This document shows, one piece after another, positions 5,946-32,997 of a stretch of DNA of 64,000 nucleotides. Below the pieces are notes generated by a model. That model was not told the origin of the DNA and searched no databases. It saw only the letters and a list, made by a program, of their open reading frames with translations. Each line of letters starts with the position of its first letter. Positions within the stretch are counted from its first letter, which is position 1. Source of the stretch: an uncultured Gammaproteobacteria bacterium. GTDB taxonomy: Bacteria > Patescibacteriota > Microgenomatia > JAMCZE01. Position numbers and translations under genes: made by a program. The DNA lies in the NCBI GenBank assembly GCA_964609775.1, contig CAZSSJ010000001.1, positions 22,858 to 86,857 of the forward strand, in the 5' to 3' direction.

Positions 5946-8900
5946 GTGGATAGGAACAAAGCAAAGGGAAAGTACAAGAAGCTTTTAAAGATCGGCGAGG
6001 CTGCGGCTGTTCTTGGCGTTTCCATTGACACGCTGCGCCGGTGGGACCAGGAAGGCAAGTTGAGTTCAATTAAGACCCCCGGGGGGACGAGATATTACTC
6101 CCTGGGCGATTTGCGCAAGATTAACCCTGAAGTCGGGGAGATTATCAAAACAGAAAAGCAGGAAAGGGCGTTTGACCTGACAGCTCTTTCTGAGGAGGCG
6201 AGGCGGGAATATTTGGAAAGCCCGATTGGAAGCCGGGGTGGCCAGCTTGCTCGACCAGGTCAGTCAAAGCGCATCAGTGGGGTCAGTTACCCGAGTCAGG
6301 TGGCGAAAGAAGCAGAGGCTGGGCTTCGAGCGAGAAAGCTGGCCTTGGGGGCGGCTTTGGCTGCAGTTGTTATAGGGTTGGTAGCGACTGGGGTTGTGGC
6401 GCTTCGAGGGACAGGATTGTTTAGGGGGGATTTGGTGAAGACCGGGAGTGAGAGGGAAGGTGCGGGTGAGGTTCTAGCTATTACCGCAGGGAAGAGCTTT
6501 TTGGAGATCGGGGCGGAGACGGTGTTTAAGGATCGGGTCGACTTTGGCGGTTCGGCCGACGGCTTTTCCGTTTTTGGGGGAGACACGGTGTCGCGGCGGC
6601 TGACGGTGACGGGGGCGGATGTGGCCTTAGACCAATCTCTGACGGCATCGTCTTCGCCGACGTTTGCTTCTTTGAAGCTTAGCGGGACGAGTGATCAGAT
6701 TGTGGTTGGGGGAAACGGAACGCTGACTTGGACACCAACGGCGGCGCGGACGGTGACATTTCCCGACGCGACTGGAACGGTTGTTCTGGACACGGCCACT
6801 CAAACCCTGTCAAACAAGTCACTTTCCGGATCAAGTAACACCTTCACGAACATTCCGAATTCGGCGCTGTCGAACTCGAAGATTACCATCAATGCGGGAA
6901 CAAATCTGGGAGGCGGAGGGGATGTGTCCTTGGGATCGAGTGTAACCATTGACCTGGATGACGCTATTTCCCTGACGTCGGCGACTTTTTCCGGGACGCT
7001 GGGGGTCGGGGGAACGGCTTCGGTCGGCGGGCAGATCATTCTTGACGGAGCGACCGCGGAGATTAACGCCACGAATAACCGGCCGCTGGACTTGGGGTTT
7101 GAGAACACCGGGGCGGTGCGGTTTTTGAACTCGACCAACTATGTTGACAGCAATAATAACTTGTATATCAACGGAGTGTTGGTCGCGGGGCCGACGACAC
7201 AAGGTTATTGGCAGAGGAATTCCGGGGCTTTGGCCCCGACGAATATTACGGACTCTTTGGTCGTCGGGGGGACGGCGACGGCGTCGGGAAAGTTTCAAGT
7301 CTACGGACTGTCGGCTCTTAATCCGGTGGCGAGCATTTCGGGGAGTTCATCGAAGGCCGCGTTCATCGTAGATAACACTGTTGGGGATTTGTTTACCGCT
7401 TCCTCCTCCGGCCTCAACCGTTTTGTGATTACCCAGAATGGAAATGTGGGGATTGGGACAAGCGCTCCGGCCTATAAGCTCGATGTCAACGGGTCGACGA
7501 ATATTGCTAATGGGTTGACGATTGCGGCCGGGAACTTGACTTTGACCGGGTCGCAGTCAATTGACGCGACGGGGATTTTGTCCATCGGGACTTCTAACCA
7601 AACATCGCTTCTTATCGGCCGGGTTGGGGCGCCGACGACGATCTACGGCTCGTCGGTGACGATCAGCTCGAGCACGTTTAGCTCCAATGCGGCGACGATT
7701 TCCGGGACGCTCGGCGTCGGGGGCGAAGCTTCGTTTTCGGCCAAAATTATTCTGGATTCGCCAACCTCGGAGATTAATGCCACGAACAGGCGCTATTTGG
7801 ATCTGGGGTTCATGAACACCGGCGGCGTGCGCTTTCTTAATGACACAAACTACATCACTCCGAGCGGGGATCTGTATTTAGCCGGCAGTTTGATCAGTTC
7901 CGGGACACAGGCGGGCTTCTGGCAGCGGCCGGCGAGCACCGGAGCCCTGGCCCCGATAAATATTACTGACTCACTGCTGATCGGCGGCACGGCGACAAGT
8001 TCAGCAAAATTTCAAGTCTATGGTCTCTCAGCGTTAAATCCGGTGGCGTCAATTTCGGCTTCGTCGGCAGTCGCCGGGCTCATGGTGGACAACACCGTCG
8101 GGGATTTGTTTACGGCAAGCTCATCGGGCTTAAACCGGTTTGTGATTACCCAGAATGGAAATGTGGGGATTGGGACGACGGCTCCAGTTGGACTGCTTGA
8201 TGTCGCGGCAACGGCCCCCTTCGTTATCACTTCGGCGGGCCAGGTCGGCATCGGGACGACGAGCCCGGTGGGACTTCTTCATGTTCAGGGAGCGTGTGTC
8301 ACGGGAGACACGCTGATTCGAGTCCGGCGTAGGAAGAAGAAGAAAAATGGTGACTGGGAAGATGAATGGCTTGATTTGCCAATTAAGCAGCTTAAGGCGG
8401 GGGATGAAGTGATGACACTGGATGAAAGGACGGGGGAGTTTACTACCTCAGTGGTTCGGGAACTCATGGACAAAGGGATTAAAACGACCTTTAAACTGAT
8501 GACCGCTGACGGCAAATCCATCCGGACAACAGCGGAACATCCTTATTTGGTGCAGGAAAGTGGCAGCCCGGACAGTAATTTCCTCTCTGGACTGACTTTT
8601 GCTTCAGTGAAAAAGATCTCCCAAGATTACTATTTCACTGTCTTGTCGGGCCGGAAGGTGGCTGTTAAAGCATTGGACGGCGAGATTGTGCATTTCACTA
8701 GCGAAGGGTTCTCTCATATTACTCACGAGAAGAAGAGCGAATTTGAAATAATGACGAGACTTTTTGCTCTGTCTAAAGTTTTGACGGTTCTGGAAACAGG
8801 TGTCAAAGTTTCTCAGAAAGACAGAAAGATCGTTAACGGCAAAGTTAATGATTATTGGACTTTGGAGGAAGTTGTTGAGGGCGTTTTAACTAAAGTTGTT

Positions 8901-11900
8901 GTCAGGTCGATTGAGGACGGGCCGAAGCAATTTTTGTCAGTTGTTTGGAAGGATAAGACTCCGGAAGCCACAAAAAATGTGGGGGACGTTGCCTCTCGCA
9001 TATTGCAGCGACGTGGACGAATGGTTACGTCTCAACGTAGGGCCCACGAGAAGTTTTATACCACAATTCTGGCCGATTTGTCAAGAGGGGTCTGGGGATA
9101 TAGAGGGATTTCCTTAGCGCAAGACTTAGTTTCCAAAAAGAAATGGGTTAAAGTGCGGTTTTTGAAACCCGGCATGGAGATCGCTACTTTCGGGCCTGAT
9201 GGCCGAATTTCCTGGCAGAAGATTGAGTCCATTGAGAAAGTGGGAGAGGAGCAGGTTTATGACATCGAAGTGGAAAACACTCACAATTTTGTGGCCGGGC
9301 ACTATATAGACAACACCAACCAGAGGGCCCTAATTTCACAGGAAGGAGAGATTCTACTTCGTTATCTGTCTTTTGAACAAAAGGAAGCCGAGGAACAGGG
9401 CGATCATGACCAAAGCAAAACCAATTTGGAAACGATTGAAAAATTCTGTCAGGTCAATCATGATTTTTTGCTCCAACTGTCCAAAATAACCGCCGACAGT
9501 AGACAAATTGTAGCCGAACCAATATTGCCTGTCAACACCCAGGCGTCCTTAATGGCGAAAAGTCCCAAGAGCAGTCCGGCTGCCAAGTCGATAAATAAGG
9601 AAGAAAAAATCTTGAGAACGGAAACCCTCATCGAGGAGAGTATAGAAAAGGTGGAGAACCTTGTCAATCGTTACAGGAAAGGCGAAATTCGGTTCGGTGG
9701 CATTGTGGCGCATAACACGACGGGGAAGGCATTGGTGGATCTGAACTACACCGGGACGGATCAGGCAATTTTGACAGCTTCTGTTTCGGGGACCACGAAA
9801 TTTGTCATTAACAATTCCGGTCAAGTGGGAGTGGGAACCGGAGCAAACAACAATACTTTGCTGGCGGATGTGGATTTGCGGACGCTGACGAACACGGTTC
9901 CGGTGGCTTCAATTGCCGGAAGCACGGGAGTGGCAGCCTTGGTGGTGGACAACGTTTCCGGGGATTTATTTACAGCCAGTAGTTCGGGTTTGAGTCGTTT
10001 TGTGATAGATAGGGGAGGGAATGTGGGGATTTCCTCGACGGCGCCGTCACAGAAACTGGACGTGGTTGGGGCGGTGCGGTTGGGAGCTAACGGGGGGGCC
10101 AATGACATTTTGAACACGACGGTTGGGGGAAGTGCCCCGAGCGGGGTTTTGTATTGGGGAAACAGGACGCTGTGTGACACTTCCGGCAACTGTTCGGGAG
10201 TCGGGGGGATTGTGGCCGGGAGCGGAGTCCAATATTACATTAGCAAATGGACTGATGCTTCCGGCACGACAATCGGCGATTCACTGCTGTATGACCCGGG
10301 CACGTCGGTGGGACTCAACACCACCTCGCCGGCGGCGATTTTTGACATTCGGGGCACGCAGGGAACTTCGGCTCTCTCCGGGACTTTGCCGGTGGCCAGC
10401 ATTTCCGGGAAAACAAGTTTTGCGGCGGTGGTGGTGAACAACGATTCGACGGTCGGGGACCTCTTCACGGCTTCGGCGTCGGGGTTAAGCCGGTTTGTCA
10501 TCACCAATACGGGCAACGTGGGCATTGGCACGGCACTTCCGGCCCAGTTGCTCTCGGTCGCCGGGGCGATCCAGTTAGGGAGCGGTTTGGGAGCAAATGA
10601 TGTTCTGAATACTGCTGCTGCCGGGGGGGTGCCGTCGGGACTGCTCTATTGGGGCAGCCGGGAAGTCTGTGATGCTTCGGGCAACTGCGCCGGAGTGGGC
10701 GGGCAGGTCCAGGGGACGGGAACCCAAAACTATATTACCAAGTGGAACAATGCCGGGGGAACGGCGATCGGGGATTCGCTGCTGTATGATTCCGGCTCGG
10801 CGGTGGGTCTGGGAACAACCTCGCCTTTGGGGACACTCCATGTGGTTGGGCAGTGCGTCGTCTCTGGCACAAGGATTCGGCGGCGACGCCGTCGCCGAGG
10901 CTATGGCGCCCGAGGGGCGGAAGAGTGGGTTGAGGAGGAAGTGCCAATTGAGGAGATTGAGCCGGACGATGAAATTGTGTCATTGAACGTTGAGAAGGGG
11001 CGGTTTGAGTGGCACAAGGTGGAAAAGACCCTTAATAAGGGGCTGCTTGCCGGGATGGCCCTTTCGACTTCGACGGGGAAGAGAATCGTGACCACGGGCA
11101 AACATCCATACCTGATGATCGACAAACCGGAAATTACTCAAGGGACTTTTGAGGTTGACCAATCGATTAAAGTGGAAGATTTGGGCAAGGCGACAATTGT
11201 GGGCTTTGCTTTGGGAAAACTGGCCTTTGCGGTGAAACTTCGACAACAGGACAAAAAGTTGATCCGTAGTGGTTTTCAGAAAGCCGGTAAGGAAGATCTC
11301 TTTGCTCCTTTGACCTTTGCCAATGTAGTGGTTAATCTCTTCCGGGCGGCCCAGATCTATCCGGCTAGAATCGCGCTTGATGAAGAATACACCGGCTTTT
11401 TCGGGGAGATTAAAGATATTATTAAAAAGTCCTTCCCGGATGCAGAGGTTTTTGAGACTAATCTGAAAGATTCTTCAGCTGCTCATCAAAGGGTCTGGGC
11501 GGTCAACAAAGGGAGAGCGAAAGAGGATGTCCTCTTGGTTCTTGAGGGCGGAGAATTAAAAGAAAGGCCGGGAGTTAAATCAACTCTGAGCGGAAGACCT
11601 TTGCCCCTGAATGGTTACAGGGGGACCAGTCAACCCATCGGCCTTTACTATGGTGAATTCTATCACCGAGGGGCGAATTTGTCAACCCCTTCGACAAGCT
11701 CAGGGTTGATAGCGAGAAAGACCGAGCTATCAAGGGCTCGATGGGCCAAAGCTGGAGATATTAGGGTCGGTCAGTATGTGGCGACGGAGGATGGGTTTGA
11801 GAAAGTGACGGGGATTTCTGACGCCGGCCGGGTGCTGATGTACGACCTTTCCGTTGCTAACACCCACAACTTCCTCGCCAACGGGATTGTGGCCCATAAC

Positions 11901-14900
11901 ACCGGGACGATGGCGATCGCGACGGTTTCGGGGGCGACGTCTTTTGCGGCCCTCACCGTGGATAACTCCGGCGTCGGGGATTTGTTTACGGCCAGTTCGT
12001 CTGGCTTAAACAGGTTCGTGATTACCCAGAACGGCAACGTCGGCATCGGGACGACGGCTCCAGTTGGACTGCTTGATGTCGCGGCAACGGCCCCCTTCGT
12101 TATCACTTCGGCGGGCCAGGTCGGCATCGGGACGACCTCGCCGGTGGGACTGCTGCATGTCCAGGGGGCGTGTGTGACGGGGGACACATTGTTGAAACGA
12201 CGGCGTAAGAAATGGCGGACACGCAGGTCCGCCCCTACGGAAATGGGACCGGATCCAGAAGGGGATGCTGAATCCACCAAAAAATCCGCTTACGCGGACT
12301 TGGTAAACCAGATCGGCTTGCTAAATGGCTGGCTTGATACCCTTACGGGTAATATATCAGATGGTGATGAAATTGTCAAGGATCAGATGGGCATGGACCT
12401 GCCGGGAGTTGAACCCGGTAGGCTTGGGGTATCAAGCCAGCCTAGCAAACCTGCCAGGCCCATGCCAATGAATAGTATAGCAGACGATGGTGACTATTAC
12501 TGGGAAGATGTGCGGATTGATGAAATTGAGGCGGGGGATGAAGTGATGACCCTGGATGAAAAGAGCGGGGAGTTTGTAGCCAGCACGGTTAAACAATTGA
12601 TGGTGATGGGGAATAAAAAGATCATTAAACTGACAACCGAGAGTGGAAAGACCATTCGGACAACGGAAAAACACCCTTATCTGGTCAAGGTCAAAGGAGA
12701 AAATCAGAAAACAGCCTTCGCTTTCATTGATGAAACAGGAATTACACTTGATCCCGGCCAACACCATCTTGGGGTGGGGGCTCTTAATAAAAAGGAGGAT
12801 GGTGCCTTAAAAGACACGTTTTGTCAAGGGGGAGGGAAGGTGTTTTGGCGTCAAGTTTCAACTCTCAAACCGGGAATGTTGATCGCGACAGTTGATGGCT
12901 TTGAGAAGATTATCAGGATTGAGGAACTGCCCGAGGAGATGGTTTATGACATTGAAGTGGAAAACACCCACAATTTTGTGGCCGGGCACTATGTCGACCA
13001 GGCTTCACAGACGGCGTTAAAAGCGGAGGAGGAAAAGTTTCTCTGTCTTTATCAACAAAACACGTTAACGAGAGAGTTTTCTCTTTTCGACCTTACCGAA
13101 GAAAATCCAAGCCAGAAAAAGGGCAATAAGCCCCAATCCAACTCCTATCCAGGCAGCGATATAAAATTGATCCAAAGTGGTGATCATATGTTTTCAAATA
13201 GCCAGTCTTCTAATTTGATGGCTATCCAGCTACAGAGCGTAGCAAAGATGAGGTTTGCTGTCAAGGCCAAGATGGGGTTGGACGAAGCGAATGATGCAAA
13301 AGCACCAAATATGAACCCAGTGGATAGGTTTGAGAGTATAGATGAAACTACCTTGACTTGGCTAGGGCGAATATTAAAAGAAAACTCCATTAACTTGACT
13401 TTAGACGAAGCGCTTTGTCTTATCAATAAATATGAGTCTGGGGAAATTGTTTATGGGGGCATTGTGGCGCATAACACGACGGGGAAGGCCCTGGCGAATC
13501 TGAACTACACCGGAACCGATCAGGCAATCTTTACAGCTTCTCAGGGAGGAGTGTTGAAGTTTTCTCTTAATGGCATCGGAACAGAGCATACGGCTTCGGT
13601 GGCGGGGACAACGTCTAAGGCGGCTCTGATTGTGGACAACACAATCGGGGATTTGTTCACGGCCTCGTCATCGGGCTTGGCTCGCTTTGTGATAACACAA
13701 AGCGGCAATGTGGGGATTGGGTCCGCCGCTCCCAGCGTCGCTCTGGATGTCACCGGAGCGGGGAAGACGAGTGGGGCCTTTACGGTGGGGAATAATTTGA
13801 CGGTGACGGCCGGGGGCCTCACGGTGACGGCCGGGAACATTGCCCTGACGGGGTCGCAGACGATTGACGGGACCGGGACGCTGACAATTGGCGGCACTTC
13901 GCAGACGTCGCTGGCGTTGGGGAGGAGCGGGGCGCAGACGACGATTTCCGGCGGGCCGGTGGTCGTCAACGGCGCTTCCTTTGCCTCGGCAGGGACAACG
14001 ACATTCACCGGCGGGAATGTGGGGATCGGGACGACGACGGTGACGGATTTTGCTTTGGAGATGGGCGGGAGCATCGGGCCGGTGACGACCGATCAATATG
14101 ATTTGGGGTCGGCCGCTCTCGAATGGAATAATTTGTATGTCAAAAACATTATTTCAACGGGGACGACGGCCGGATTTTGGCAGCGGGCGTCGGGGGTGCT
14201 GGCTCCGCAGAACATTACAGACTCGCTGATTATTGGCGGGACGGCAACATCCTCCGGGAAATTCCAAGTTTACGGCCTATCGGCTCTTAATCCAGTGGCG
14301 AGCATTTCCGGGTCTTCGGCAGTGGCCGCGCTTATGGTCGATAACACAGTGGGAGATTTATTTACGGCCTCATCGTCGGGACTAAATCGGTTTGTGATTA
14401 CTCAAAATGGAAATGTGGGGATTGGGAGCACGGTTCCTGTATCACGGCTTGATACAGGAGGAGGAACAATTTCACTTAATGGTGGGTGGTTGTCGAATGA
14501 TGGTGGAGCTGAAGGTGTGTTTGTTAAAACAGACGGGAATGTGGGTATCGGGACAAGTGCACCAGCCTATAGGCTTGATGTCGTCCACACCACACCGACT
14601 GCGGCAAATGGCAGTGTGTCACCAGATCAAATAGGATTGAGGGTTAACAGGGCCCACTATGTTGGGACCCCTGGACCCTACCCTAATGCTGTTTATGGCG
14701 TTTTGGGTCAAGGCCAAGCAGGTCAGGGGAGTGCCAGTGTGTCTTATTCCAATACGGTGGGTGCTAGAGGTGTGGCTGGACAAGCAATTGTCAATGTTAC
14801 GGGTGGTGCCAGTGTTACGGGTGCAAGTTCATTGTATGCGTTGAATGCTACGATTACTGCTGGAACTTTATCTAATCAATATGGATTATATGTTGAGTCG

Positions 14901-17900
14901 TTATCCGGGGCCTCCAACAATTATGGAGTTTATGTTGCTGGTAATAATTCCTCGTATTTTGGCGGCAACGTCGGCATCGGGACGACGAGCCCGGTGGGAC
15001 TGCTGCATGTCCAGGGGGCGTGCGTGACGGGGGACACCTTGTTAAAAAGACGACGGAAGCGGAAGAGCAAATATGGTGATTGGGAGGAAGACTATTGGGA
15101 AGACATTAGAATTGATGAGATCGAGGCGGGAGACGAAATATTAACTTTTGACGAAACCACTGGCGGATTTACTGCTTCTCAGGTTAGGGAGCTTATGGAT
15201 ATGGGTAAAAAGACCACGTTTAAGTTGGTAACGGAGGGCGGAAAGGAAATTCGGACGACAGCGAACCATCCTTACTTGGTCAAGTCAGCCAATACGAGTA
15301 ATTTCTTCAATGAGACTTTTAAAGTTGTGGCAGAAATTGCCAGGGCCTATTACTTTGCCACTTTAACGTCCTGGGATCCGATTGCTCCGGCCCTGAATAA
15401 TGAGAGAATAAGTATTTCTGAGGAAGGATGGCATCATCTTCATCATAAAGCCAGAAGCAGGGGAGAAATGTTGACGAGGTATTTTGCACTTCCCAAAGCG
15501 GCCGCTCTTCTTGCCAGCAAAGAAGCTCGCGTGACTTATGAACCCGGTGGGGATGGGGTCTCCGAGTTTTGGTCCCTTTATGGAACAGTTGATGATGTTC
15601 AGGTTAAGGTGGTTGTCCGATCAGTCAATAAAGGTCCGAAGTACTTTTACTCTGTCATCTGGAAGAGCGAAGTTAAAGAAGACACTAAAAAAAGAGCTGC
15701 CTCCTGCTTGTATCCGCAGTGTGGGGGAGTGATTACCCCTCAGCTCTTTAATGAGAGGATTATAGACCAGATGAGTGACTTTGTCAAGAAACGAAAGAGA
15801 GACTACCAGCTGGGCTCGTATCTCTCTGGGGAAGATTCTACTACTAAGTGGGTGAAAGTCAAACAATTAAAGCCCGGGATGGAAATTGCCACGGTGGGCG
15901 GGGATGACCAGATTTCTTGGCAGAAGATCAAATCTATTGAAAAAATCGGGGAAGAACAAGTCTTCGACATCGAAGTGGAAAACACCCACAATTTTGTGGC
16001 CAATGGGATTGTGGCGCATAACACGACGGGGAAGGCCTTGGCGAATTTGAACTATACGGGGACGGATCAGGCGATTTTCACCGCTTCGCAGGGGGGAACG
16101 TTGAAGTTTGCTTTGAATGGGACGGGGACGGATTTTACCGCCAGCGTCGCCGGGACGACTTCGAAGGCGGCTCTCATTGTGGACAACACCGTCGGGGATT
16201 TGTTTACGGCCAGCTCCAGTGGCTTAAACAGATTCGTGATTACCCAGAATGGAAATGTGGGCATTGGAATGGCGACGCCTTCTGCTACATTGGAAGTTAG
16301 AAAAGGTCCAATTCCCTCAACATTTGATTCATCTCTTGCTCTCTATTCTGCTGGTCAGTTTGTCAACACGAACACTAACTGGTATGACACGGAATTAAAT
16401 TTACTTGATACTAGGGACCAAGCTGCAGGAGTTGGCGGAAGGCTTGCTTTCGGTGGCGTTTATAGACAAGTTGGGACTACCAATGTAACAACCTTTGCGG
16501 CGATTGGCGGTTATAAAGAGAATTCTACTAGTGGTGATTATGCTGGATATCTCTCGTTTGAAACCAGACCTAACGGTGGAATTTTTACTGAACAGATGAG
16601 AGTTTCTAGTGCTGGCAACGTCGGCATCGGGACGACGAGCCCGGTGGGACTGCTGCATGTTCAGGGGGCGTGCGTGACAGGGGATACTCTGATTCGAGTA
16701 AGACGGCGCAAGAAGAAGAAGAATGGCGAGTGGGAAGATGAATGGCTGGACGTTCCCATTAAAGATATTCAAGCTGGGGACGAAGTGGCCACTCTGGACG
16801 AAAAGACGGGAGAATTCATCGTCTCCAAGGTTAAACAATTAATGAACATGGGGAGAAAAGTGGTCTTTGAACTTTTGACTGAGTCAGGAAAAGTCGTTAA
16901 AACTACAGAAAATCATCCGTATTTGGTTGACCAATCAGGGAAACAAATGGTCTCTGATCTCAGTGCTATCCAGAAGGAAACTTATGAGTTTGCTGAGAAG
17001 TTAGGAAAGAAATACTATGTGAACAACTTGGCTGGCAGGAAGGTTAAGTCTAGGGCTTTGGGCGAATTTGTCGAGTTTAGTCATTCTGGCTGGAACCATT
17101 TTGTGGAGAAAAGCCATTCAATTAATGAACTTATTACTCGATTCTTTGCTTTGCCTCGGGTGGTTACAGTTATCAGATCTAGTCCCCATGTCACTTCATA
17201 TAACATAGTCGAGAAAAAAGACATGACGATTGAATATTGGGAGTTGCAGGAAATTATTGACCATGTTCTTGTTAAAGTTCTAGTCTGCGCTGTTGATGGT
17301 GGACCGAAGTTTTTCTTGACGTGCACTTGGCTCGGGACAAAAGAGAATGAAGGGGTCAAACCAACTAAAAAAGAGCTGTCTCTCTCGCCTAGATCCCGCG
17401 AAATGCAGGACCAGTTGGGTCGACGTCGGGAACTGGTTATCCCTCAGCTCTTTAGTAGGGTGATTATACCAAAGAAAGTCAAGTGGGTCAAGGTCAAGGA
17501 TTTGACTGTAGGTGTGACTATTGCTACCAAAGATGGCTGGGAGAAAGTAGTTTCCATTAAAAAATTGGATGAACAACAAGTTTATGACATTGAAGTGGAA
17601 AACACCCACAATTTCGTGGCCAATGGGATCGTGGCGCATAACACGACGGGCAAGGCCTTGGTGGATCTGAACACCACCGGAGATCAGGCGGTCTTTACGG
17701 CTTCAGTTTCTGGAACGACGAAATTTGTGATTAACAATTCGGGGCAGGTGGGAGTAGGGACGGGGGCAAACAACAATACCCTTTTGGCGGATGTGGATTT
17801 GCGGACGCTGACAAACACTGTACCGGTGGCTTCAATTTCCGGAAGCACCGGAGTGGCAGCATTGGTGGTGGACAATGTTTCCGGCGATGTGTTTACGGCG

Positions 17901-20900
17901 TCAACTTCGGGATTGAGCCGGTTTGTGATTGACAAGAACGGAAATGTGGGGATCGGGAGTTCGGCTCCAGGATACAAACTGGATGTTTCGGGAACGGCTC
18001 ATGTCACCGGAGCAGTCACTTTAGATACGGCCCTGACGGTGGCCAATGGGGGGACGGGAGCCCAGACATTCACAGACAACGGCGTGCTCTTTGGCAACCT
18101 GACGGCCGCCATTGGAGCGACGGCCGAAGGAGCGACCGGGCAGTGCCTCATCGGGAACACCGGGAGCGCGCCATCATGGTCAGCATGTACCACGGCCTCA
18201 GGGCAGTTGTGGCAGGAAGCTTTGGGAGTGGTCGCGCCGCTGAACATCACGGATTCCCTGATTATTGGGAAGATCGCGACACCCAGCGGGGCCATTACCT
18301 CGGGCAGCATGCAGATTTACGGGGTGAACAACCTGACCCCGGTCGCCTCTATTTCGGGGGTCAGTGCGGTGGCGGCGCTCATCGTGGACAACACCGGCGG
18401 GGATGTCTTCACGGCCAGCACTTCGGGACTGACCAGATTTGTGATTGACAAGAACGGCAACGTCGGGATTGGGACAACGAGCCCGGATTATCCACTTGTA
18501 GTAGTAGGGACAGCTTCTGACGGAACACGGACACTTGAGGTAAAAAATTCAGTTGCTGGTAGTATATCTAATTTCCAAGTAACAGGTGATGGTGTCAACG
18601 CTCGCCTTATGGCGTTGTCTAGTTCGTATTCATCATCCGGGGCTTATGCTGCTGATACAGTTGTCTTAGACGACGATCAGGGTTACGCTGCTGGCCTTAC
18701 ACTACTTGCCCGTAATTCAAGTGGGTATATCCGAATGTTTACAGGCGGTTTTGATGACGGAAATGAGCGTCTGAGAATTAACAGCACTGGCAACGTCGGC
18801 ATCGGGACGACGAGTCCGGTGGGACTGCTGCATGTTCAGGGACAATGCGTCATTGCCGGAACAAAAATTAAAAGAAGAAAGAAGAAAGAAAAAAGAAGAA
18901 AGCAAGACACTGCCGGAACGGGGCCGGATCCGGTCGGCGATTGGGACTATGAAGATGTTCCCATCGAACAGATCGAACCGGATGATGAGATTCTTTCCCT
19001 AAACCAGGAAAAGGGCCAGTTTGAGTGGCACAAGGTGGAACAAACCATGAATAAAGGACTCCTGCCGGCCTTGGCTCTGACAACTTCTACTGGAAAGAGA
19101 ATTGTCACGACGGCAAAACATCCATATTTGGCGATCGATCGGCCGGAAACTACTCAAGGGACTTTTGAGGTGGATCAATCAATCAAGATCGAGAATTTGG
19201 GGGCGGCAAGCATTATAGGGTTTGCCCTGGGGAAACTAGCTTTTGCCGTTAAGCTGCCGCAGAAGGATAAGAAGATTATTCTCGCTCGTTATCAGAAGAA
19301 GAACCAAAAAGATGTTTTTGCCCATGAGACTTTTGCCCGATGTGTGGTTGCCGCCTTTAAGATTGCCCGGATTTATCCAGCGAGAATTGCTCTCGATGAA
19401 GAATACACCAGTTACTTCCGAAGAATCGAGAGCGTTATTAAGGAAAGTTTCCCTGACAGCGAGATTTTTCAAACCAACCTTAAGGATGGTTCCGCCGCCC
19501 ACAAAAAGGTCTGGGCTGTTAATAGGGGAATTTTAAGAGAGGATGCTGTTCTAAGTTTGGAATCGGGAGAATTAAAAGAAAGGCCGGGGGTTAAATCAAC
19601 CTTCAGAATGCCTTTGCCCCTGGTTGGTTACAGGGGGACCAGTCATCCACACGGCCTTTACTATGGAGAATTCTACTCCACGGAGCGGGAATTGTCAAGA
19701 GCAAAGTGGGTTAAGGCCGCGGAGGTTAGGAAAGGGATGTGTGTGGCGACGGAGGATGGTTTTGAGAAGGTCACAGGGATTTCCGATGCGGGGCAGGTGG
19801 CGATGTATGATCTGCAAATTGCCAACACTCACAATTTTGTGGCCAATGGGATTGTGGCGCATAACACGACGGGGAAGGCCCTGGTGGATCTGAACACCAC
19901 CGGGGACCAGGCGGTGTTCACCGCCAGTGTTTCCGGAAACACCAAGTTTGTGATTAACAATTCAGGACAGGTGGGAGTGGGAACCGGAGCAAACAACAAC
20001 ACGCTGCTGGCCGATGTGGATTTGCGGACGCTGACAAACACGGTTCCGGTGGCTTCAATTGCCGGGAGCACGGGGGTGGCGGCTCTGGTTGTGGACAATA
20101 CAGCCGGGGATCTTTTCACCGCCTCGTCAAGTGGGCTATCAAGATTTGTGATTGACAAGAACGGGAATGTGGGGATTGGGACGGCGGCGCCGACGGCTCT
20201 GGTGTCTTTAGCTAACTCGAACTATACGACGCAAAACATGTTGAACGTGGCGGGGACGTCGACAGGGTTGACGACCGGGTCACTGGCGAGTTTTGACTGG
20301 AGTCCGACGGACTGGTCGACCTCGAGCGGGAATTTGGTGAATATTAATCTTGGCAGTTTGGCCGACACGACGGGAAACATCTTTAATATTTCCGATGACG
20401 GCAGCTCGATCTTCTCGGTTTCGCCGCAGCAGATTGTCAACTCGTTGCCAACGTCATTTAATGCCGCCGGAGATGTGGCGATTGCCTATGACATTAATTT
20501 CACCAATCCGACGGCATCATACATTAAATCTGCTGCACCCATGTATTTGCAGGCAGGGGAGCTATTTAATTCCTCGGATTTGACGTTGAAGACCTTTAAC
20601 AAAGGCTTGATTGTTCTGGATCCAGATGAAGCGGTCACAATTGATGGGGCGGCTTCTGTGTCGGGGCAGCTCATGGTCGGCAGTACGACAGCGGCGCCGG
20701 CGCAGTTTGGCAAGTTCTATGTGACGGACTCTAACACGGCCACTTCTTCAGCCTTCATTGAAAACACTAACACAGCTGCAGCAATTTCGGGTTTGGTCAT
20801 TAAGCTGGGGAGTACGACCCTGGACACCACCTCGCATTTTGTTAATTTTCTTGATTTGAACGGCAAGATGATTGGCAACATTCGGGCAGCTAACACGACA

Positions 20901-21923
20901 ACGGTTGCTTATCAGACAAGCGGAATTGCGGATTTTGGGGAATGGATGAAAGTTTCTTCGGATTTGACTAATTTGTCTAATTGGACCAATTTGGTTTCTC
21001 CGGGGACGATTGTTTGTCAAAGCGCGGATGGGGTGGAGCCCTGCGAGGCGAGTGAGTCGGCGAGGATGGCGGGGGTGACTTCTGACACGACGGCGTTTTT
21101 GGGAGGAGAGGAGAAAGACGGAAGCGTGGTTGTCGGAATGTTGGGACAAATTCGAGTGAAGATCGCAACGGACTCAGCGCAAATTGAGCCGGGTGACGCG
21201 ATTGGGGTGGCGATCGCCGGTTTGGGAAAGAAAATTACGTCACGGGGATATGTGGTCGGCCGGGCGATGGAATCATGGTCCTCCGGACAAGAGAAAGTCT
21301 TAGTTTATGTCAACCCCGGTTACTTTGAGGGCCCCGAGTCGCAGCTGGCGTCGAAACTCTCGGTGGATGAGATTCAGGAACAGGTGGCGTCGATCAGTGC
21401 AAATTTGACTAATTTGTCTAATTGGTCCAATTTGAACAGCGACGAATTTGCGACGGTTTCGGGAAACCTGAAAGTTTTGGGAATGACGGAGCTTTCCAAC
21501 ACGACGATTGGCGGGTCGCTCACTGTGGGACTGGTCCATGTTGATGATTTGCTGGGCGATGTTTCCGGTTTGAATGGGAGTTTGAGTTTGCAAAACGGGA
21601 TGCTGACAATTAGTCAAATTGGACAAATTGGTCAAATTGGGGTTAACGGCGATTTGACAGTTTCCGGGGAGTTGACGGCGAAGAAGATTAACGTGCCGAC
21701 GGGAGTGGCTGGGGCCTCGGCGGGCAAGGCGACGATTCTTGCTGGACAAAGCGAAATTGAGATTACGACCAGCGCGCTTAGTGCTAATTCCTTGATTTTT
21801 GCGACACCGGAAGACGTGCCGGTGGCCGTCTCGACGACCAAGACAGCGACAGACAAGTTTAAGATCAAACTGGACTCCCCTGCGGGGGCAAACATCAAAA
21901 TTAATTGGTGGATAATCAATTAG
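5946..21923 (+). CDS. Giant (5325-aa precursor) repeat-rich putative surface/adhesin-like protein hosting six inteins. N-terminal MerR/excisionase-type HTH segment followed by a predicted TM helix; the body is made of about 50-aa repeats (GDLFTASSSGLNRFVITQNGNVGIGTT.P).
   Basis: One uninterrupted 15,978-nt frame; highly iterated Gly/Thr/Ser-rich repeat; intein blocks A (C[VI]TGDTLI), B (T.EHPYL), F/G (YD[IL].VENTHNF[VL]ANGIVAHN) six times; ends in TAG. Confidence 0.85.
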   Translation: MDRNKAKGKYKKLLKIGEAAAVLGVSIDTLRRWDQEGKLSSIKTPGGTRYYSLGDLRKINPEVGEIIKTEKQERAFDLTALSEEARREYLESPIGSRGGQLARPGQSKRISGVSYPSQVAKEAEAGLRARKLALGAALAAVVIGLVATGVVALRGTGLFRGDLVKTGSEREGAGEVLAITAGKSFLEIGAETVFKDRVDFGGSADGFSVFGGDTVSRRLTVTGADVALDQSLTASSSPTFASLKLSGTSDQIVVGGNGTLTWTPTAARTVTFPDATGTVVLDTATQTLSNKSLSGSSNTFTNIPNSALSNSKITINAGTNLGGGGDVSLGSSVTIDLDDAISLTSATFSGTLGVGGTASVGGQIILDGATAEINATNNRPLDLGFENTGAVRFLNSTNYVDSNNNLYINGVLVAGPTTQGYWQRNSGALAPTNITDSLVVGGTATASGKFQVYGLSALNPVASISGSSSKAAFIVDNTVGDLFTASSSGLNRFVITQNGNVGIGTSAPAYKLDVNGSTNIANGLTIAAGNLTLTGSQSIDATGILSIGTSNQTSLLIGRVGAPTTIYGSSVTISSSTFSSNAATISGTLGVGGEASFSAKIILDSPTSEINATNRRYLDLGFMNTGGVRFLNDTNYITPSGDLYLAGSLISSGTQAGFWQRPASTGALAPINITDSLLIGGTATSSAKFQVYGLSALNPVASISASSAVAGLMVDNTVGDLFTASSSGLNRFVITQNGNVGIGTTAPVGLLDVAATAPFVITSAGQVGIGTTSPVGLLHVQGACVTGDTLIRVRRRKKKKNGDWEDEWLDLPIKQLKAGDEVMTLDERTGEFTTSVVRELMDKGIKTTFKLMTADGKSIRTTAEHPYLVQESGSPDSNFLSGLTFASVKKISQDYYFTVLSGRKVAVKALDGEIVHFTSEGFSHITHEKKSEFEIMTRLFALSKVLTVLETGVKVSQKDRKIVNGKVNDYWTLEEVVEGVLTKVVVRSIEDGPKQFLSVVWKDKTPEATKNVGDVASRILQRRGRMVTSQRRAHEKFYTTILADLSRGVWGYRGISLAQDLVSKKKWVKVRFLKPGMEIATFGPDGRISWQKIESIEKVGEEQVYDIEVENTHNFVAGHYIDNTNQRALISQEGEILLRYLSFEQKEAEEQGDHDQSKTNLETIEKFCQVNHDFLLQLSKITADSRQIVAEPILPVNTQASLMAKSPKSSPAAKSINKEEKILRTETLIEESIEKVENLVNRYRKGEIRFGGIVAHNTTGKALVDLNYTGTDQAILTASVSGTTKFVINNSGQVGVGTGANNNTLLADVDLRTLTNTVPVASIAGSTGVAALVVDNVSGDLFTASSSGLSRFVIDRGGNVGISSTAPSQKLDVVGAVRLGANGGANDILNTTVGGSAPSGVLYWGNRTLCDTSGNCSGVGGIVAGSGVQYYISKWTDASGTTIGDSLLYDPGTSVGLNTTSPAAIFDIRGTQGTSALSGTLPVASISGKTSFAAVVVNNDSTVGDLFTASASGLSRFVITNTGNVGIGTALPAQLLSVAGAIQLGSGLGANDVLNTAAAGGVPSGLLYWGSREVCDASGNCAGVGGQVQGTGTQNYITKWNNAGGTAIGDSLLYDSGSAVGLGTTSPLGTLHVVGQCVVSGTRIRRRRRRRGYGARGAEEWVEEEVPIEEIEPDDEIVSLNVEKGRFEWHKVEKTLNKGLLAGMALSTSTGKRIVTTGKHPYLMIDKPEITQGTFEVDQSIKVEDLGKATIVGFALGKLAFAVKLRQQDKKLIRSGFQKAGKEDLFAPLTFANVVVNLFRAAQIYPARIALDEEYTGFFGEIKDIIKKSFPDAEVFETNLKDSSAAHQRVWAVNKGRAKEDVLLVLEGGELKERPGVKSTLSGRPLPLNGYRGTSQPIGLYYGEFYHRGANLSTPSTSSGLIARKTELSRARWAKAGDIRVGQYVATEDGFEKVTGISDAGRVLMYDLSVANTHNFLANGIVAHNTGTMAIATVSGATSFAALTVDNSGVGDLFTASSSGLNRFVITQNGNVGIGTTAPVGLLDVAATAPFVITSAGQVGIGTTSPVGLLHVQGACVTGDTLLKRRRKKWRTRRSAPTEMGPDPEGDAESTKKSAYADLVNQIGLLNGWLDTLTGNISDGDEIVKDQMGMDLPGVEPGRLGVSSQPSKPARPMPMNSIADDGDYYWEDVRIDEIEAGDEVMTLDEKSGEFVASTVKQLMVMGNKKIIKLTTESGKTIRTTEKHPYLVKVKGENQKTAFAFIDETGITLDPGQHHLGVGALNKKEDGALKDTFCQGGGKVFWRQVSTLKPGMLIATVDGFEKIIRIEELPEEMVYDIEVENTHNFVAGHYVDQASQTALKAEEEKFLCLYQQNTLTREFSLFDLTEENPSQKKGNKPQSNSYPGSDIKLIQSGDHMFSNSQSSNLMAIQLQSVAKMRFAVKAKMGLDEANDAKAPNMNPVDRFESIDETTLTWLGRILKENSINLTLDEALCLINKYESGEIVYGGIVAHNTTGKALANLNYTGTDQAIFTASQGGVLKFSLNGIGTEHTASVAGTTSKAALIVDNTIGDLFTASSSGLARFVITQSGNVGIGSAAPSVALDVTGAGKTSGAFTVGNNLTVTAGGLTVTAGNIALTGSQTIDGTGTLTIGGTSQTSLALGRSGAQTTISGGPVVVNGASFASAGTTTFTGGNVGIGTTTVTDFALEMGGSIGPVTTDQYDLGSAALEWNNLYVKNIISTGTTAGFWQRASGVLAPQNITDSLIIGGTATSSGKFQVYGLSALNPVASISGSSAVAALMVDNTVGDLFTASSSGLNRFVITQNGNVGIGSTVPVSRLDTGGGTISLNGGWLSNDGGAEGVFVKTDGNVGIGTSAPAYRLDVVHTTPTAANGSVSPDQIGLRVNRAHYVGTPGPYPNAVYGVLGQGQAGQGSASVSYSNTVGARGVAGQAIVNVTGGASVTGASSLYALNATITAGTLSNQYGLYVESLSGASNNYGVYVAGNNSSYFGGNVGIGTTSPVGLLHVQGACVTGDTLLKRRRKRKSKYGDWEEDYWEDIRIDEIEAGDEILTFDETTGGFTASQVRELMDMGKKTTFKLVTEGGKEIRTTANHPYLVKSANTSNFFNETFKVVAEIARAYYFATLTSWDPIAPALNNERISISEEGWHHLHHKARSRGEMLTRYFALPKAAALLASKEARVTYEPGGDGVSEFWSLYGTVDDVQVKVVVRSVNKGPKYFYSVIWKSEVKEDTKKRAASCLYPQCGGVITPQLFNERIIDQMSDFVKKRKRDYQLGSYLSGEDSTTKWVKVKQLKPGMEIATVGGDDQISWQKIKSIEKIGEEQVFDIEVENTHNFVANGIVAHNTTGKALANLNYTGTDQAIFTASQGGTLKFALNGTGTDFTASVAGTTSKAALIVDNTVGDLFTASSSGLNRFVITQNGNVGIGMATPSATLEVRKGPIPSTFDSSLALYSAGQFVNTNTNWYDTELNLLDTRDQAAGVGGRLAFGGVYRQVGTTNVTTFAAIGGYKENSTSGDYAGYLSFETRPNGGIFTEQMRVSSAGNVGIGTTSPVGLLHVQGACVTGDTLIRVRRRKKKKNGEWEDEWLDVPIKDIQAGDEVATLDEKTGEFIVSKVKQLMNMGRKVVFELLTESGKVVKTTENHPYLVDQSGKQMVSDLSAIQKETYEFAEKLGKKYYVNNLAGRKVKSRALGEFVEFSHSGWNHFVEKSHSINELITRFFALPRVVTVIRSSPHVTSYNIVEKKDMTIEYWELQEIIDHVLVKVLVCAVDGGPKFFLTCTWLGTKENEGVKPTKKELSLSPRSREMQDQLGRRRELVIPQLFSRVIIPKKVKWVKVKDLTVGVTIATKDGWEKVVSIKKLDEQQVYDIEVENTHNFVANGIVAHNTTGKALVDLNTTGDQAVFTASVSGTTKFVINNSGQVGVGTGANNNTLLADVDLRTLTNTVPVASISGSTGVAALVVDNVSGDVFTASTSGLSRFVIDKNGNVGIGSSAPGYKLDVSGTAHVTGAVTLDTALTVANGGTGAQTFTDNGVLFGNLTAAIGATAEGATGQCLIGNTGSAPSWSACTTASGQLWQEALGVVAPLNITDSLIIGKIATPSGAITSGSMQIYGVNNLTPVASISGVSAVAALIVDNTGGDVFTASTSGLTRFVIDKNGNVGIGTTSPDYPLVVVGTASDGTRTLEVKNSVAGSISNFQVTGDGVNARLMALSSSYSSSGAYAADTVVLDDDQGYAAGLTLLARNSSGYIRMFTGGFDDGNERLRINSTGNVGIGTTSPVGLLHVQGQCVIAGTKIKRRKKKEKRRKQDTAGTGPDPVGDWDYEDVPIEQIEPDDEILSLNQEKGQFEWHKVEQTMNKGLLPALALTTSTGKRIVTTAKHPYLAIDRPETTQGTFEVDQSIKIENLGAASIIGFALGKLAFAVKLPQKDKKIILARYQKKNQKDVFAHETFARCVVAAFKIARIYPARIALDEEYTSYFRRIESVIKESFPDSEIFQTNLKDGSAAHKKVWAVNRGILREDAVLSLESGELKERPGVKSTFRMPLPLVGYRGTSHPHGLYYGEFYSTERELSRAKWVKAAEVRKGMCVATEDGFEKVTGISDAGQVAMYDLQIANTHNFVANGIVAHNTTGKALVDLNTTGDQAVFTASVSGNTKFVINNSGQVGVGTGANNNTLLADVDLRTLTNTVPVASIAGSTGVAALVVDNTAGDLFTASSSGLSRFVIDKNGNVGIGTAAPTALVSLANSNYTTQNMLNVAGTSTGLTTGSLASFDWSPTDWSTSSGNLVNINLGSLADTTGNIFNISDDGSSIFSVSPQQIVNSLPTSFNAAGDVAIAYDINFTNPTASYIKSAAPMYLQAGELFNSSDLTLKTFNKGLIVLDPDEAVTIDGAASVSGQLMVGSTTAAPAQFGKFYVTDSNTATSSAFIENTNTAAAISGLVIKLGSTTLDTTSHFVNFLDLNGKMIGNIRAANTTTVAYQTSGIADFGEWMKVSSDLTNLSNWTNLVSPGTIVCQSADGVEPCEASESARMAGVTSDTTAFLGGEEKDGSVVVGMLGQIRVKIATDSAQIEPGDAIGVAIAGLGKKITSRGYVVGRAMESWSSGQEKVLVYVNPGYFEGPESQLASKLSVDEIQEQVASISANLTNLSNWSNLNSDEFATVSGNLKVLGMTELSNTTIGGSLTVGLVHVDDLLGDVSGLNGSLSLQNGMLTISQIGQIGQIGVNGDLTVSGELTAKKINVPTGVAGASAGKATILAGQSEIEITTSALSANSLIFATPEDVPVAVSTTKTATDKFKIKLDSPAGANIKINWWIIN
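8295..9716 (+). mobile_element. Intein 1 (474 aa) in the giant protein. It has a long internal uncharacterized domain and about 140 aa inserted between block F (NTHNFVAGHY) and the terminal GGIVAHN.
   Basis: Starts with Cys of ...HVQGA|CVTGDTLIRVRRRKKKK, contains TTAEHPYLV, ends ...GGIVAHN|TTGKAL. Frame verified against the host ORF. Confidence 0.8.
10854..11900 (+). mobile_element. Intein 2 (349 aa); second subfamily (CVVSGTRI...EWHKVE...; internal domain with IYPARIALDEEYT)
   Basis: ...HVVGQ|CVVSGTRIRRRRRRRG...GKHPYLM...YDLSVANTHNFLANGIVAHN|TG. Confidence 0.8.
12171..13475 (+). mobile_element. Intein 3 (435 aa); same subfamily as intein 1, including the insertion before GGIVAHN.
   Basis: ...HVQGA|CVTGDTLLKRRRKKW...TEKHPYLV...YDIEVENTHNFVAGHYVD...YGGIVAHN|TTGKAL. 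Confidence 0.8.
15021..16022 (+). mobile_element. Intein 4 (334 aa)
   Basis: ...HVQGA|CVTGDTLLKRRRKRKSKYGDWEED...TANHPYLV...FDIEVENTHNFVANGIVAHN|TTGKAL. Confidence 0.85.
16671..17642 (+). mobile_element. Intein 5 (324 aa)
   Basis: ...HVQGA|CVTGDTLIRVRRRKKKKNGEWEDEW...TENHPYLV...YDIEVENTHNFVANGIVAHN|TTGKAL. Confidence 0.85.
18846..19865 (+). mobile_element. Intein 6 (340 aa); same subfamily as intein 2.
   Basis: ...HVQGQ|CVIAGTKIKRRKKKEKRRK...AKHPYLA...YDLQIANTHNFVANGIVAHN|TTGKAL. Confidence 0.8.
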
Positions 21924-21971
21924 GCTGGCTTGCCCTGAGCTTGTCGAAGGGTGGATTGTGAATTAACGAAA

Positions 21972-28104: not shown

Positions 28105-28201
28105 GCTCGACAGCTGAGGGTGAATGTTGTTTTCAGCTCGCGGCTGCGGGCCTAAACCAAGGAAGCGCAGTTAGATTTGGACCCAATACGGGGGCGCCTT
28201 A
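28105..28201 (+). pseudogene. Orphan 3'-terminal remnant duplicating the last ~30 codons of the upstream LamG gene (…ECCFQLAAAGLNQGSAVRFGPNTGAP*)
   Basis: Translation in frame gives NQGSAVRFGPNTGAP-stop, against NQSSAVRFGPSSGAP-stop at 28020..28067. Confidence 0.6.
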
Positions 28202-32993: not shown

Positions 32994-32997
32994 ATCT

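Follow-up and report, generated by a model that had tools for sequence, protein, structure and literature searches.

A 64,000-nucleotide stretch of contig CAZSSJ010000001.1 (assembly GCA_964609775.1, positions 22,858 to 86,857), placed by GTDB in the Patescibacteriota and called the window below, contains a gene for a giant repetitive surface-type protein that is interrupted by six inteins (Table 1). The N-terminal part of the host protein has a MerR-like helix-turn-helix and a hydrophobic helix, its body is made up of many GNVGIGTTSP-type repeats, and its C-terminus gives a weak Peptidase_G2/IMC signal; the spliced extein would be approximately 3070 aa long. Five of the inteins carry a middle domain of one of two types, designated here type A and type B, neither of which showed a relation to a recognized family of homing endonucleases. 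No extra inteins or cargo copies beyond the six were found elsewhere in the window.

Table 1. Features of the intein-bearing gene, in window coordinates
Feature	Position	Strand	Details
Host gene, giant repetitive surface-type protein	5946-21923	+	Single ORF (open reading frame), 5325 aa
Intein 1	8295-9716	+	474 aa; Hint scaffold, type A (LPD3-like) cargo, F-G insertion; Intein_splicing E 1.4e-14
Polybasic run, intein 1	8319-8345	+	RVRRRKKKK, then acidic stretch NGDWEDEW
Type A cargo, intein 1	8553-9143	+	Folded LPD3-like core ~8589-8951, then ~60-aa low-confidence tail
F-G insertion, intein 1	9297-9695	+	133 aa between ..NTHNFVA and GGIVAHN
Intein 2	10854-11900	+	349 aa; Hint scaffold, type B cargo
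Polybasic run, intein 2	10872-10898	+	RIRRRRRRR
Type B cargo, intein 2	11118-11741	+	Motifs EVDQSIKVE, LDEEYT, SSAAH; profile hidden Markov model (HMM) E 5.8e-59
Intein 3	12171-13475	+	435 aa; scaffold with deleted cargo and two loop insertions
Polybasic run, intein 3	12195-12227	+	KRRRKKWRTRR
Insertion after polybasic run, intein 3	12225-12500	+	~92 aa
Palindromic MITE-like (miniature inverted-repeat transposable element-like) element	12324-12465	.	~148 nt, in frame, inside the post-run insertion of intein 3
Block B-block F linker, intein 3	12687-12845	+	53 aa; starts FAFIDETGI..LGVGAL
F-G insertion, intein 3	12984-13454	+	157 aa
Intein 4	15021-16022	+	334 aa; Hint scaffold, type A cargo
Polybasic run, intein 4	15045-15071	+	
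Type A cargo, intein 4	15282-15848	+	
Intein 5	16671-17642	+	324 aa; Hint scaffold, type A cargo
Polybasic run, intein 5	16695-16721	+	
Type A cargo, intein 5	16929-17483	+	
Intein 6	18846-19865	+	340 aa; Hint scaffold, type B cargo
Polybasic run, intein 6	18864-18902	+	
Type B cargo, intein 6	19134-19706	+	

Anatomy of the six inteins

Judged by their splicing blocks, the six elements are canonical class-1 inteins. The block A nucleophile Cys1 is present in every copy, block B has the TxxH form throughout (TTAEHPYLV, TTGKHPYLM, TTEKHPYLV, TTANHPYLV, TTENHPYLV, and TTAKHPYLA in inteins 1–6, respectively), and blocks F and G read ..NTHNF[VL]A..GIVAHN, followed by Thr at the +1 position, in 6/6. 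Pfam Intein_splicing was matched above its gathering score by all of them (E 7e-14 to 1.6e-21, 52–77 bits, cut-off 35.8), as was TIGR01443 (intein_Cterm), and TIGR01445 (intein_Nterm) exceeded its cut-off in inteins 1, 3, 4, and 5. Splicing appears most doubtful for inteins 1 and 3, which have 133–157 aa between blocks F and G; the atypical topology attributed to these two in a preliminary description of this DNA, prepared without database searches, was borne out, as NTHNFVAGHY is followed by 133 and 157 residues, respectively, before GGIVAHN.

The same description had reported an Arg/Lys run directly after block A, and such a run, containing 7–11 Lys/Arg residues, was indeed found straight after CVTGDT in 6/6 inteins. 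When the comparison was extended to the whole clade of related inteins (26 inteins in 14 proteins or loci), 7–11 Lys/Arg were counted within residues 7–20 in 26/26, whatever cargo the intein carried, so that the run belongs to the Hint scaffold itself. Positions 1–82 of the TIGR01445 model align with residues 1–85 of inteins 1, 4, and 5, that is, nearly one to one, so the run substitutes for the ordinary first hairpin rather than adding to it. Its combination with the acidic stretch that comes next (e.g., RRRKKKK-NG-DWEDEW) suggests a charge-paired hairpin, at the turn of which inteins 2, 3, and 6 have additional residues. It is plausible that this basic hairpin serves as a nucleic-acid anchor.

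Between blocks B and F, inteins 1, 4, and 5 have one domain in common (type A, 30–38% identity), and inteins 2 and 6 share their own, different domain (type B, 67–68% identity), the latter as originally described. Intein 3 had been grouped with inteins 1, 4, and 5, which proved incorrect for this copy, its block B–block F segment being just 53 aa long. The "H..HEK" motif ascribed to the shared domain is not conserved either: only its first His is kept (SHITHEKKS, HHLHHKARS, and NHFVEKSHS).

Cargo families of the endonuclease slot

Intein cargo is nearly always of the LAGLIDADG or HNH kind. None of the excised segments matched LAGLIDADG, HNH, GIY-YIG, His-Cys box, PD-(D/E)xK, or EDxHD families in Pfam or PHROGs at E≤10, and NCBIfam gave no LAGLIDADG, HNH, or GIY-YIG match on these segments at the same threshold, in agreement with the first reading of the sequence. 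Searches with 120 type A relatives and 12 type B relatives did not match known homing-endonuclease families, nor did PDB profile searches of the cargo, and the characteristic fold of these families was not found. Remote homology to a known homing endonuclease, which would have made the inteins ordinary, was thus detected for neither cargo type. A degenerate LAGLIDADG or HNH domain was rejected for type A; for type B, it was ruled against by profiles, not by structure. Six structural families of homing endonucleases are recognized (PMC3384342).

The sole Pfam signal of type A was LPD3 (PF18798), the profile of which was covered nearly completely at sub-threshold scores. An exhaustive profile search among 1.84 billion representative proteins retrieved 360 type A homologues at E≤1e-3; LPD3 was matched by 36 of 120 small relatives (best E 1.1e-6), and no second Pfam family recurred among them. 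One homologue (P0053) was recognized by both models, by the type A profile at residues 449–576 (E 1.1e-10) and by Pfam LPD3 at 450–559 with 31 bits, which is above the cut-off. The AlphaFold2 (AF2) model of type A has a confident core (residues 13–133, predicted local distance difference test score 84–93) with the topology alpha-beta-beta-alpha-alpha followed by four antiparallel strands. Its top Foldseek match in BFVD was annotated LPD3 (E 6.8e-4), and the weak structural matches were mostly RNase toxins of the BECR fold, such as CdiA-CT, RelE/ParE-like proteins, BrnT, colicin D and E5, and MqsR. Considering the transitive profile matches, the top BFVD match, and the 36/120 relatives with LPD3, we concluded that type A belongs to the LPD3 superfamily, and its modelled core may have a BECR-like fold, for which RNase activity would be a reasonable reading. 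The residues conserved in ≥90% of 120 type A sequences (Y18, G43, H46, R/K52, R60, W93, F118, and S120) are kept in the window copies and map to helix 2, the start of the long helix, and two strands of the sheet. Of these, H46, R/K52, R60, and S120 are candidate residues for the metal-independent catalysis by His/Arg/Lys that characterizes BECR ribonucleases. Consequently, the proposal of a new intein-associated domain family does not hold for type A as a family, since LPD3 already exists, but it apparently does for LPD3 as intein cargo. The definers of LPD3 left its function open (PMC5512222); the polyvalent proteins of phages and conjugative elements in which it occurs are active at an early stage of invasion (PMC5512222).

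Outside inteins, type A occurs in many free-standing genes of ~120–140 aa (typically ~125 aa), one of which sits between dnaK and grpE, and as a domain of phage and conjugative polyvalent proteins. Among the inteins of the clade, it was found at the equivalent site in other giant proteins of the candidate phyla radiation (CPR; P0003, P0008, P0010, P0012, P0014, P0015, P0022, and P0027). The module including its C-terminal tail was also seen inserted in frame, without a Hint domain, in leucyl-tRNA synthetase (LeuRS) at two different positions (P0023 and P0029) and in RpiB (P0017). A motif of this tail (..ELSLS../..SRLYPRCRG..TPQL) is common to the intein-borne and enzyme-inserted forms and is missing from the solo genes, and the shared tail suggests that the module travels in one piece from one permissive loop to another. 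Another protein (P0004, 356 aa), in which an unrelated N-terminal region precedes a type A domain and which ends in GRASCRERV, is probably an assembly chimera and was not counted as an architecture. In the contexts inspected, no conserved antitoxin or immunity neighbour accompanied the solo genes of type A or type B, and the adjacent small ORFs were unrelated. A word-indexed search with the type A domain of intein 1 or with the type B pair returned zero relatives, the index being too coarse for such divergence.

Type B had no match in Pfam, NCBIfam, PHROGs, or PDB sequence profiles, and no relatives in phage and plasmid collections. A motif-based scan of GTDB genomes yielded nine type B loci. 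Two of them are intein-borne, namely a giant WWE3 protein (L001) with two type B inteins and a Zambryskibacteria protein, and the other seven are free-standing ORFs of ~150 aa from Patescibacteria, Chloroflexi, and one unclassified bacterial metagenome-assembled genome. A profile search added 25 database proteins of 121–261 aa (mostly 145–185) lacking Pfam annotation, among them one protein of a Micrarchaeia archaeon and one intein fragment. The suggestion of a new intein-associated family is therefore supported for type B by the lack of any database family, but not by its distribution, as at least 35 relatives exist elsewhere and are mostly free-standing. In the three contexts inspected, the solo genes stood alone among housekeeping genes without a conserved partner.

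Eight positions are invariant in 37/37 type B sequences (D9, Q10, S11, E15, K41, D83, E85, and Y86) and three more (S115, A117, and H118) are shared by 34–36 of the 37; both window copies keep all of these positions. Between inteins 2 and 6 the nonsynonymous divergence (dN) of type B is 0.25 and the synonymous divergence (dS) is saturated, which makes dN/dS ratios between the inteins unreliable, so the constraint on type B is read qualitatively. We infer from these residues that type B is a metal-dependent nuclease. Its motifs come in the order DQS..E, DxEY, and SxAH, which would put the first of them on strand one, the second on a later strand, and the third behind a further one, and on this basis we propose that it possibly has an RNase H-like topology. 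RNase H-like nucleases have the fold beta-beta-beta-alpha-beta-alpha-beta-alpha, their acidic residues lying on strands 1 and 4 and behind strand 5. The AF2 model of type B was unusable, and the fold search made with it gave noise.

Over the 26 inteins of the clade, the cargo slot is filled by type A in 11, type B in 6, an NYN-like domain in 2, and a DUF3800-like domain in 2, the other five having low-complexity middles without identifiable cargo. The WWE3 protein mentioned above (L001, MEVH01000007.1, 3307–10167) is a 2287-aa GNVGIGTT-repeat protein with four clade inteins, the cargoes of which are NYN (Pfam E 8e-19), type B, a divergent type B, and a DUF3800-like domain. Another protein (P0003) has three inteins, one without identifiable cargo, one with type A, and one with NYN.

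The insertion site is conserved as well. A 57-nt upstream flank, exemplified by GGCAACGTCGGCATCGGGACGACGAGCCCGGTGGGACTGCTGCATGTTCAGGGGGCG at 16614–16670 on the + strand, is nearly identical (0–7 mismatches) before inteins 1, 3, 4, 5, and 6 (8238–8294, 12114–12170, 14964–15020, 16614–16670, and 18789–18845, respectively), and the 30-nt downstream flank of these five inteins varies by 1–3 mismatches. Fused, the two flanks make up an 87-bp target, GGCAACGTCGGCATCGGGACGACGAGCCCGGTGGGACTGCTGCATGTTCAGGGGGCG followed by ACGACGGGGAAGGCCTTGGTGGATCTGAAC. The extein flanks of intein 2 are unlike those of the other five. Every copy of the flank in the window holds an intein, the number of empty copies being 0, and relatives in other CPR phyla occupy the equivalent repeat position (..LHVxGQ/TY..G, the slash marking the insertion point). 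Despite the near-identical flanks, synonymous sites between the window inteins are saturated, as would be expected if intein lineages that are old and distinct had a sequence-specific target in common. A 283-aa protein from another assembly (P0016) joins a C-terminal end like that of intein 5 to an extein that starts like the sequence after intein 5 and continues like that after intein 1. Compared with window positions 17400–17900 and 9717–10100, it suggests repeat recombination or a different arrangement of inteins in a related population.

Loop insertions, mobile DNA and the neighbourhood

The start of the linker between blocks B and F of intein 3 aligns with the cargo of the fourth intein of the WWE3 protein (BLASTP, 44% identity over 34 aa, pairwise E 7e-5), which itself gives a weak match to Pfam DUF3800 over the full profile. 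Given the short segment and this match, intein 3 is regarded as a cargo-deleted derivative that keeps a DUF3800-like remnant. It has a further insertion after the polybasic run, which the preliminary description had overlooked and which contains, in frame, a palindromic MITE-like element. A perfect 16-nt inverted repeat (12327–12342 and 12427–12442) and a DNA fold z-score of −4.96 characterize this element, the inner hairpin of which (CCGGGAGTTGAACCCGG) looks like the T-arm of a tRNA. A counterpart with 74% identity (E 3e-21) is present on another metagenome contig (L031, 9034–9181), where it lies in the F–G insertion of a different intein. As a similar ~148-nt element is present in two intein loops of two genomes, such loops are targets or safe harbours for MITE-like elements. 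A post-run insertion also occurs in the P0014/L033 intein (residues ~1258–1767), where it includes RHSRENGNPE and EIATLSSLARND, as if derived from translated palindromic repeats common in CPR genomes; the F–G insertion of this intein is short, the distance between the NFV motif and the terminal Asn being 56 aa.

The F–G insertions of inteins 1 and 3 align chiefly at their ends and are weakly constrained (dN 0.70, with a dN/dS of ~0.6 affected by saturation). They were rejected as palindromic DNA elements, their hairpin z-scores being −1.57 in intein 1 and 0.07 in intein 3 and their inverted repeats being at chance level. By means of a degenerate DNA pattern for NFV[AG]GHY[IV]D, the insertion was traced in 11 metagenome loci, nine of which have 56–199 aa from the NFV start to [FY]GGI[VI]AHN plus Thr; in the other two, the ORF stops ahead of block G. 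Conserved stretches are found at both ends, over the first ~25 aa (GHY[IV]D..T..AL..E[EQ]E) and the final ~10 aa, and the middle is hypervariable and of low complexity, containing translated palindromic repeats in several relatives. Thus organized, the insertion looks like an extended F–G hairpin with a tip accepting insertions. The F–G middles of four loci (L026, L028, L029, and L034) are bracketed by translated repeats: LELGTWNLE lies close to the start and, in two of the loci (L026 and L029), SSKLQVPE close to the end. These look as if both arms of an inverted repeat in the DNA had been translated in frame. The post-run and F–G loops would tolerate in-frame DNA insertions because the whole intein leaves the mature protein.

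ATP synthase subunits and a DUF4143 ATPase are encoded near the host gene, and their exact matches assign the window to Microgenomates group bacterium GW2011_GWA1_48_10 / Candidatus Gottesmanbacteria, which is a member of the CPR. A large surface-protein cluster adjoins it (21951–28067, 29619–34257, 28199–29320 on the − strand, and 36358–37566), comprising a 2038-aa protein with five Laminin_G_3 repeats, two AAA_14/DUF4143 ATPases, and proteins with dockerin, cohesin, Big_7, and beta-propeller repeats. The long ORFs of the window are mostly on the + strand; GC skew is positive in nearly all 2-kb bins, and the cumulative skew climbs almost monotonically over 1–64000. Rfam and tRNA scans of the whole window found no features.

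Interpretation and relation to known systems

Anatomy, family membership, distribution, and residue conservation are compatible with a reading of the inteins as composite selfish elements, in which the slot of a CPR-specific Hint scaffold has repeatedly been invaded by small, independently mobile genes of nuclease type that give, or once gave, mobility to the intein; we favour this reading, at a probability of about 45%. According to it, a CPR-specific clade of class-1 inteins would occupy one conserved site of the GNVGIGTTSP repeat (..LHVxG[AQ]/T..) in giant surface proteins, and the endonuclease slot between blocks B and F would act as a landing pad for self-mobile small enzyme genes. After translation the Hint domain would splice itself out; in the free intein the basic hairpin would then provide an unspecific nucleic-acid anchor and the cargo a catalytic module, which would cleave intein-less copies of the ~90-nt repeat target, whereupon the intein would be copied in by repair. 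The repetition of the target within the gene would account for the six occupied sites. Of the possibilities raised in the preliminary description, a novel homing nuclease is plausible, and a non-nuclease cargo is less likely because the polar and acidic residues are strictly conserved.

Several points weigh against this reading. Both the nuclease activity and the substrates of the type A and type B families are what we infer from sequence, and the window copies of type A score below the LPD3 cut-off of 27 bits (20.3–21.8 bits for intein 1, 15.9 bits for intein 5, no match for intein 4). The possible BECR fold of type A and the NYN cargo of relatives are typical of RNases, and the type A fold would favour RNases over DNases. 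RNases cannot make the double-strand break required by homing. Four unrelated cargo families at one site would be awkward if each had to recognize the site itself, and the near-identical flanks could have arisen by gene conversion among repeats instead of target recognition. No intein-less allele was observed.

The same observations give some room to the main rival explanation, tentative and rather unlikely as a whole, by which the cargoes serve no mobility but are RNA-targeting effectors or toxins with a role in conflict, such as addiction, defence, or attack on host cells, freed by splicing, and the inteins spread in the array by recombination. The fold matches of type A to RNase toxins, the occurrence of LPD3 in polyvalent proteins of phages and conjugative elements (PMC5512222), and that of NYN, a PIN-like RNase domain, in related inteins speak for such a role; several unrelated cargoes at one site would fit a cargo independent of site recognition, and the junction in P0016 suggests recombination between repeats. 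However, no immunity or antitoxin partner stands beside the solo genes inspected, an unrestrained RNase would be harmful in the cytoplasm of the producer, the LeuRS and RpiB insertions are hard to explain in this way, and the motif set of type B is like that of a metal-dependent nuclease and unlike a BECR RNase.

A clearly improbable account of the inteins at large is that middle segments and loop insertions alike are passengers, neutral or in decay, of a protein segment that is spliced out, and have no present function. The loss of most of the cargo of intein 3, the in-frame MITE-like element in intein loops, the hypervariable and weakly constrained F–G middles (56–199 aa), and the five clade inteins with low-complexity middles all agree with it, but the window copies of type A and type B retain every family-invariant residue, the dN of type B is as low as 0.25 against a saturated dS, and type A folds confidently. 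This account can explain the loop insertions and intein 3 but leaves the two cargo domains unexplained. More speculative still, and very unlikely, is a pro-effector array, in which the excised inteins would be RNase or nuclease effectors released by an episymbiotic CPR cell against its host or competitors. The poly-Arg/Lys tract would then resemble a cell-penetrating peptide, splicing, perhaps conditional or post-export, would be the release step, and the cargo would be interchangeable like polymorphic toxin tips, although nested in true inteins. That the cargoes are highly degenerate versions of known homing endonucleases (LAGLIDADG, HNH, GIY-YIG, PD-(D/E)xK, or EDxHD) is hardly credible, for they sit in the canonical slot between blocks B and F but gave no Pfam, NCBIfam, or PHROG match to these families at E≤10 and blank PDB profile searches, and for type A this is essentially excluded.

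Inteins as such and LPD3 as an uncharacterized domain are already known. The cargo repertoire, the type B family, the universal basic hairpin, the sub-clade with F–G insertions, and the LPD3 module in essential enzymes appear to be new: no description of them was found in a limited literature collection, which is not proof of novelty. One intein clade carries at least four enzyme-like families other than LAGLIDADG or HNH in one slot. If even one of these cargoes drives homing, it would represent a new family of homing endonucleases and a possible scaffold for sequence-specific nucleases; if they are RNases, inteins can carry cargo without a role in DNA homing, which would change the account of intein persistence. 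The inteins also provide a first hint, from context, at what LPD3, an uncharacterized phage domain, does, define type B as an unannotated enzyme-like family in CPR bacteria, Chloroflexi, and a DPANN archaeon, and point to a small domain that can enter essential enzymes (LeuRS and RpiB) in frame without a splicing element.

Like canonical large inteins such as PI-SceI, the window elements have class-1 blocks, a conserved insertion site, and, inside the stretch from block B to block F, a domain of foreign origin. Unlike them, they carry cargo that is neither LAGLIDADG nor HNH, with at least four unrelated families on one scaffold and site; six of them share one gene, which encodes a repetitive surface protein and no enzyme of replication or repair; the polybasic first hairpin is clade-wide, and a sub-clade has the F–G insertion. 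If the Hint domain of these inteins has an addition that contacts nucleic acid, this would be comparable to the DNA recognition region of PI-SceI. Type A resembles BECR-fold RNase toxins and PBECR domains in that its model has helices ahead of an antiparallel sheet of four strands; its conserved His, Arg/Lys, Ser, and Trp residues lie on helix and strands, and the kinds of conserved residues resemble the reported active-site residues of colicin D; it differs from these toxins in having no detectable sequence relation to them and no antitoxin or immunity gene beside its solo forms. A search with the type A profile brings up genuine LPD3 domains, namely those of polyvalent proteins (PF18798; Iyer et al. 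2017, PMC5512222), whereas the window copies score below the cut-off and are members of a CPR subfamily that has its own conserved tail at the C-terminus and is nested in inteins or host enzymes instead of polyvalent proteins. PT-HINT polymorphic toxins also combine a Hint domain in a giant surface protein with a toxin-like nuclease fold, and weak, mostly sub-cut-off matches to PT-HINT Pfam models were obtained. In the window, however, the cargo is nested inside the Hint domain and not C-terminal to it, the HN + Thr junction is intact, and extein continues on both sides, on which grounds identity with PT-HINT toxins was rejected. In distribution, there is a parallel with the free-standing homing endonuclease genes that, in the composite-origin model, invade mini-inteins or introns, such as those of the EDxHD family (PMC3239194), as both cargo types occur as scattered solitary nuclease-like genes and also nested in self-splicing elements; unlike those genes, the window families lie outside the six recognized ones (PMC3384342), and type A also enters enzymes without a splicing element.

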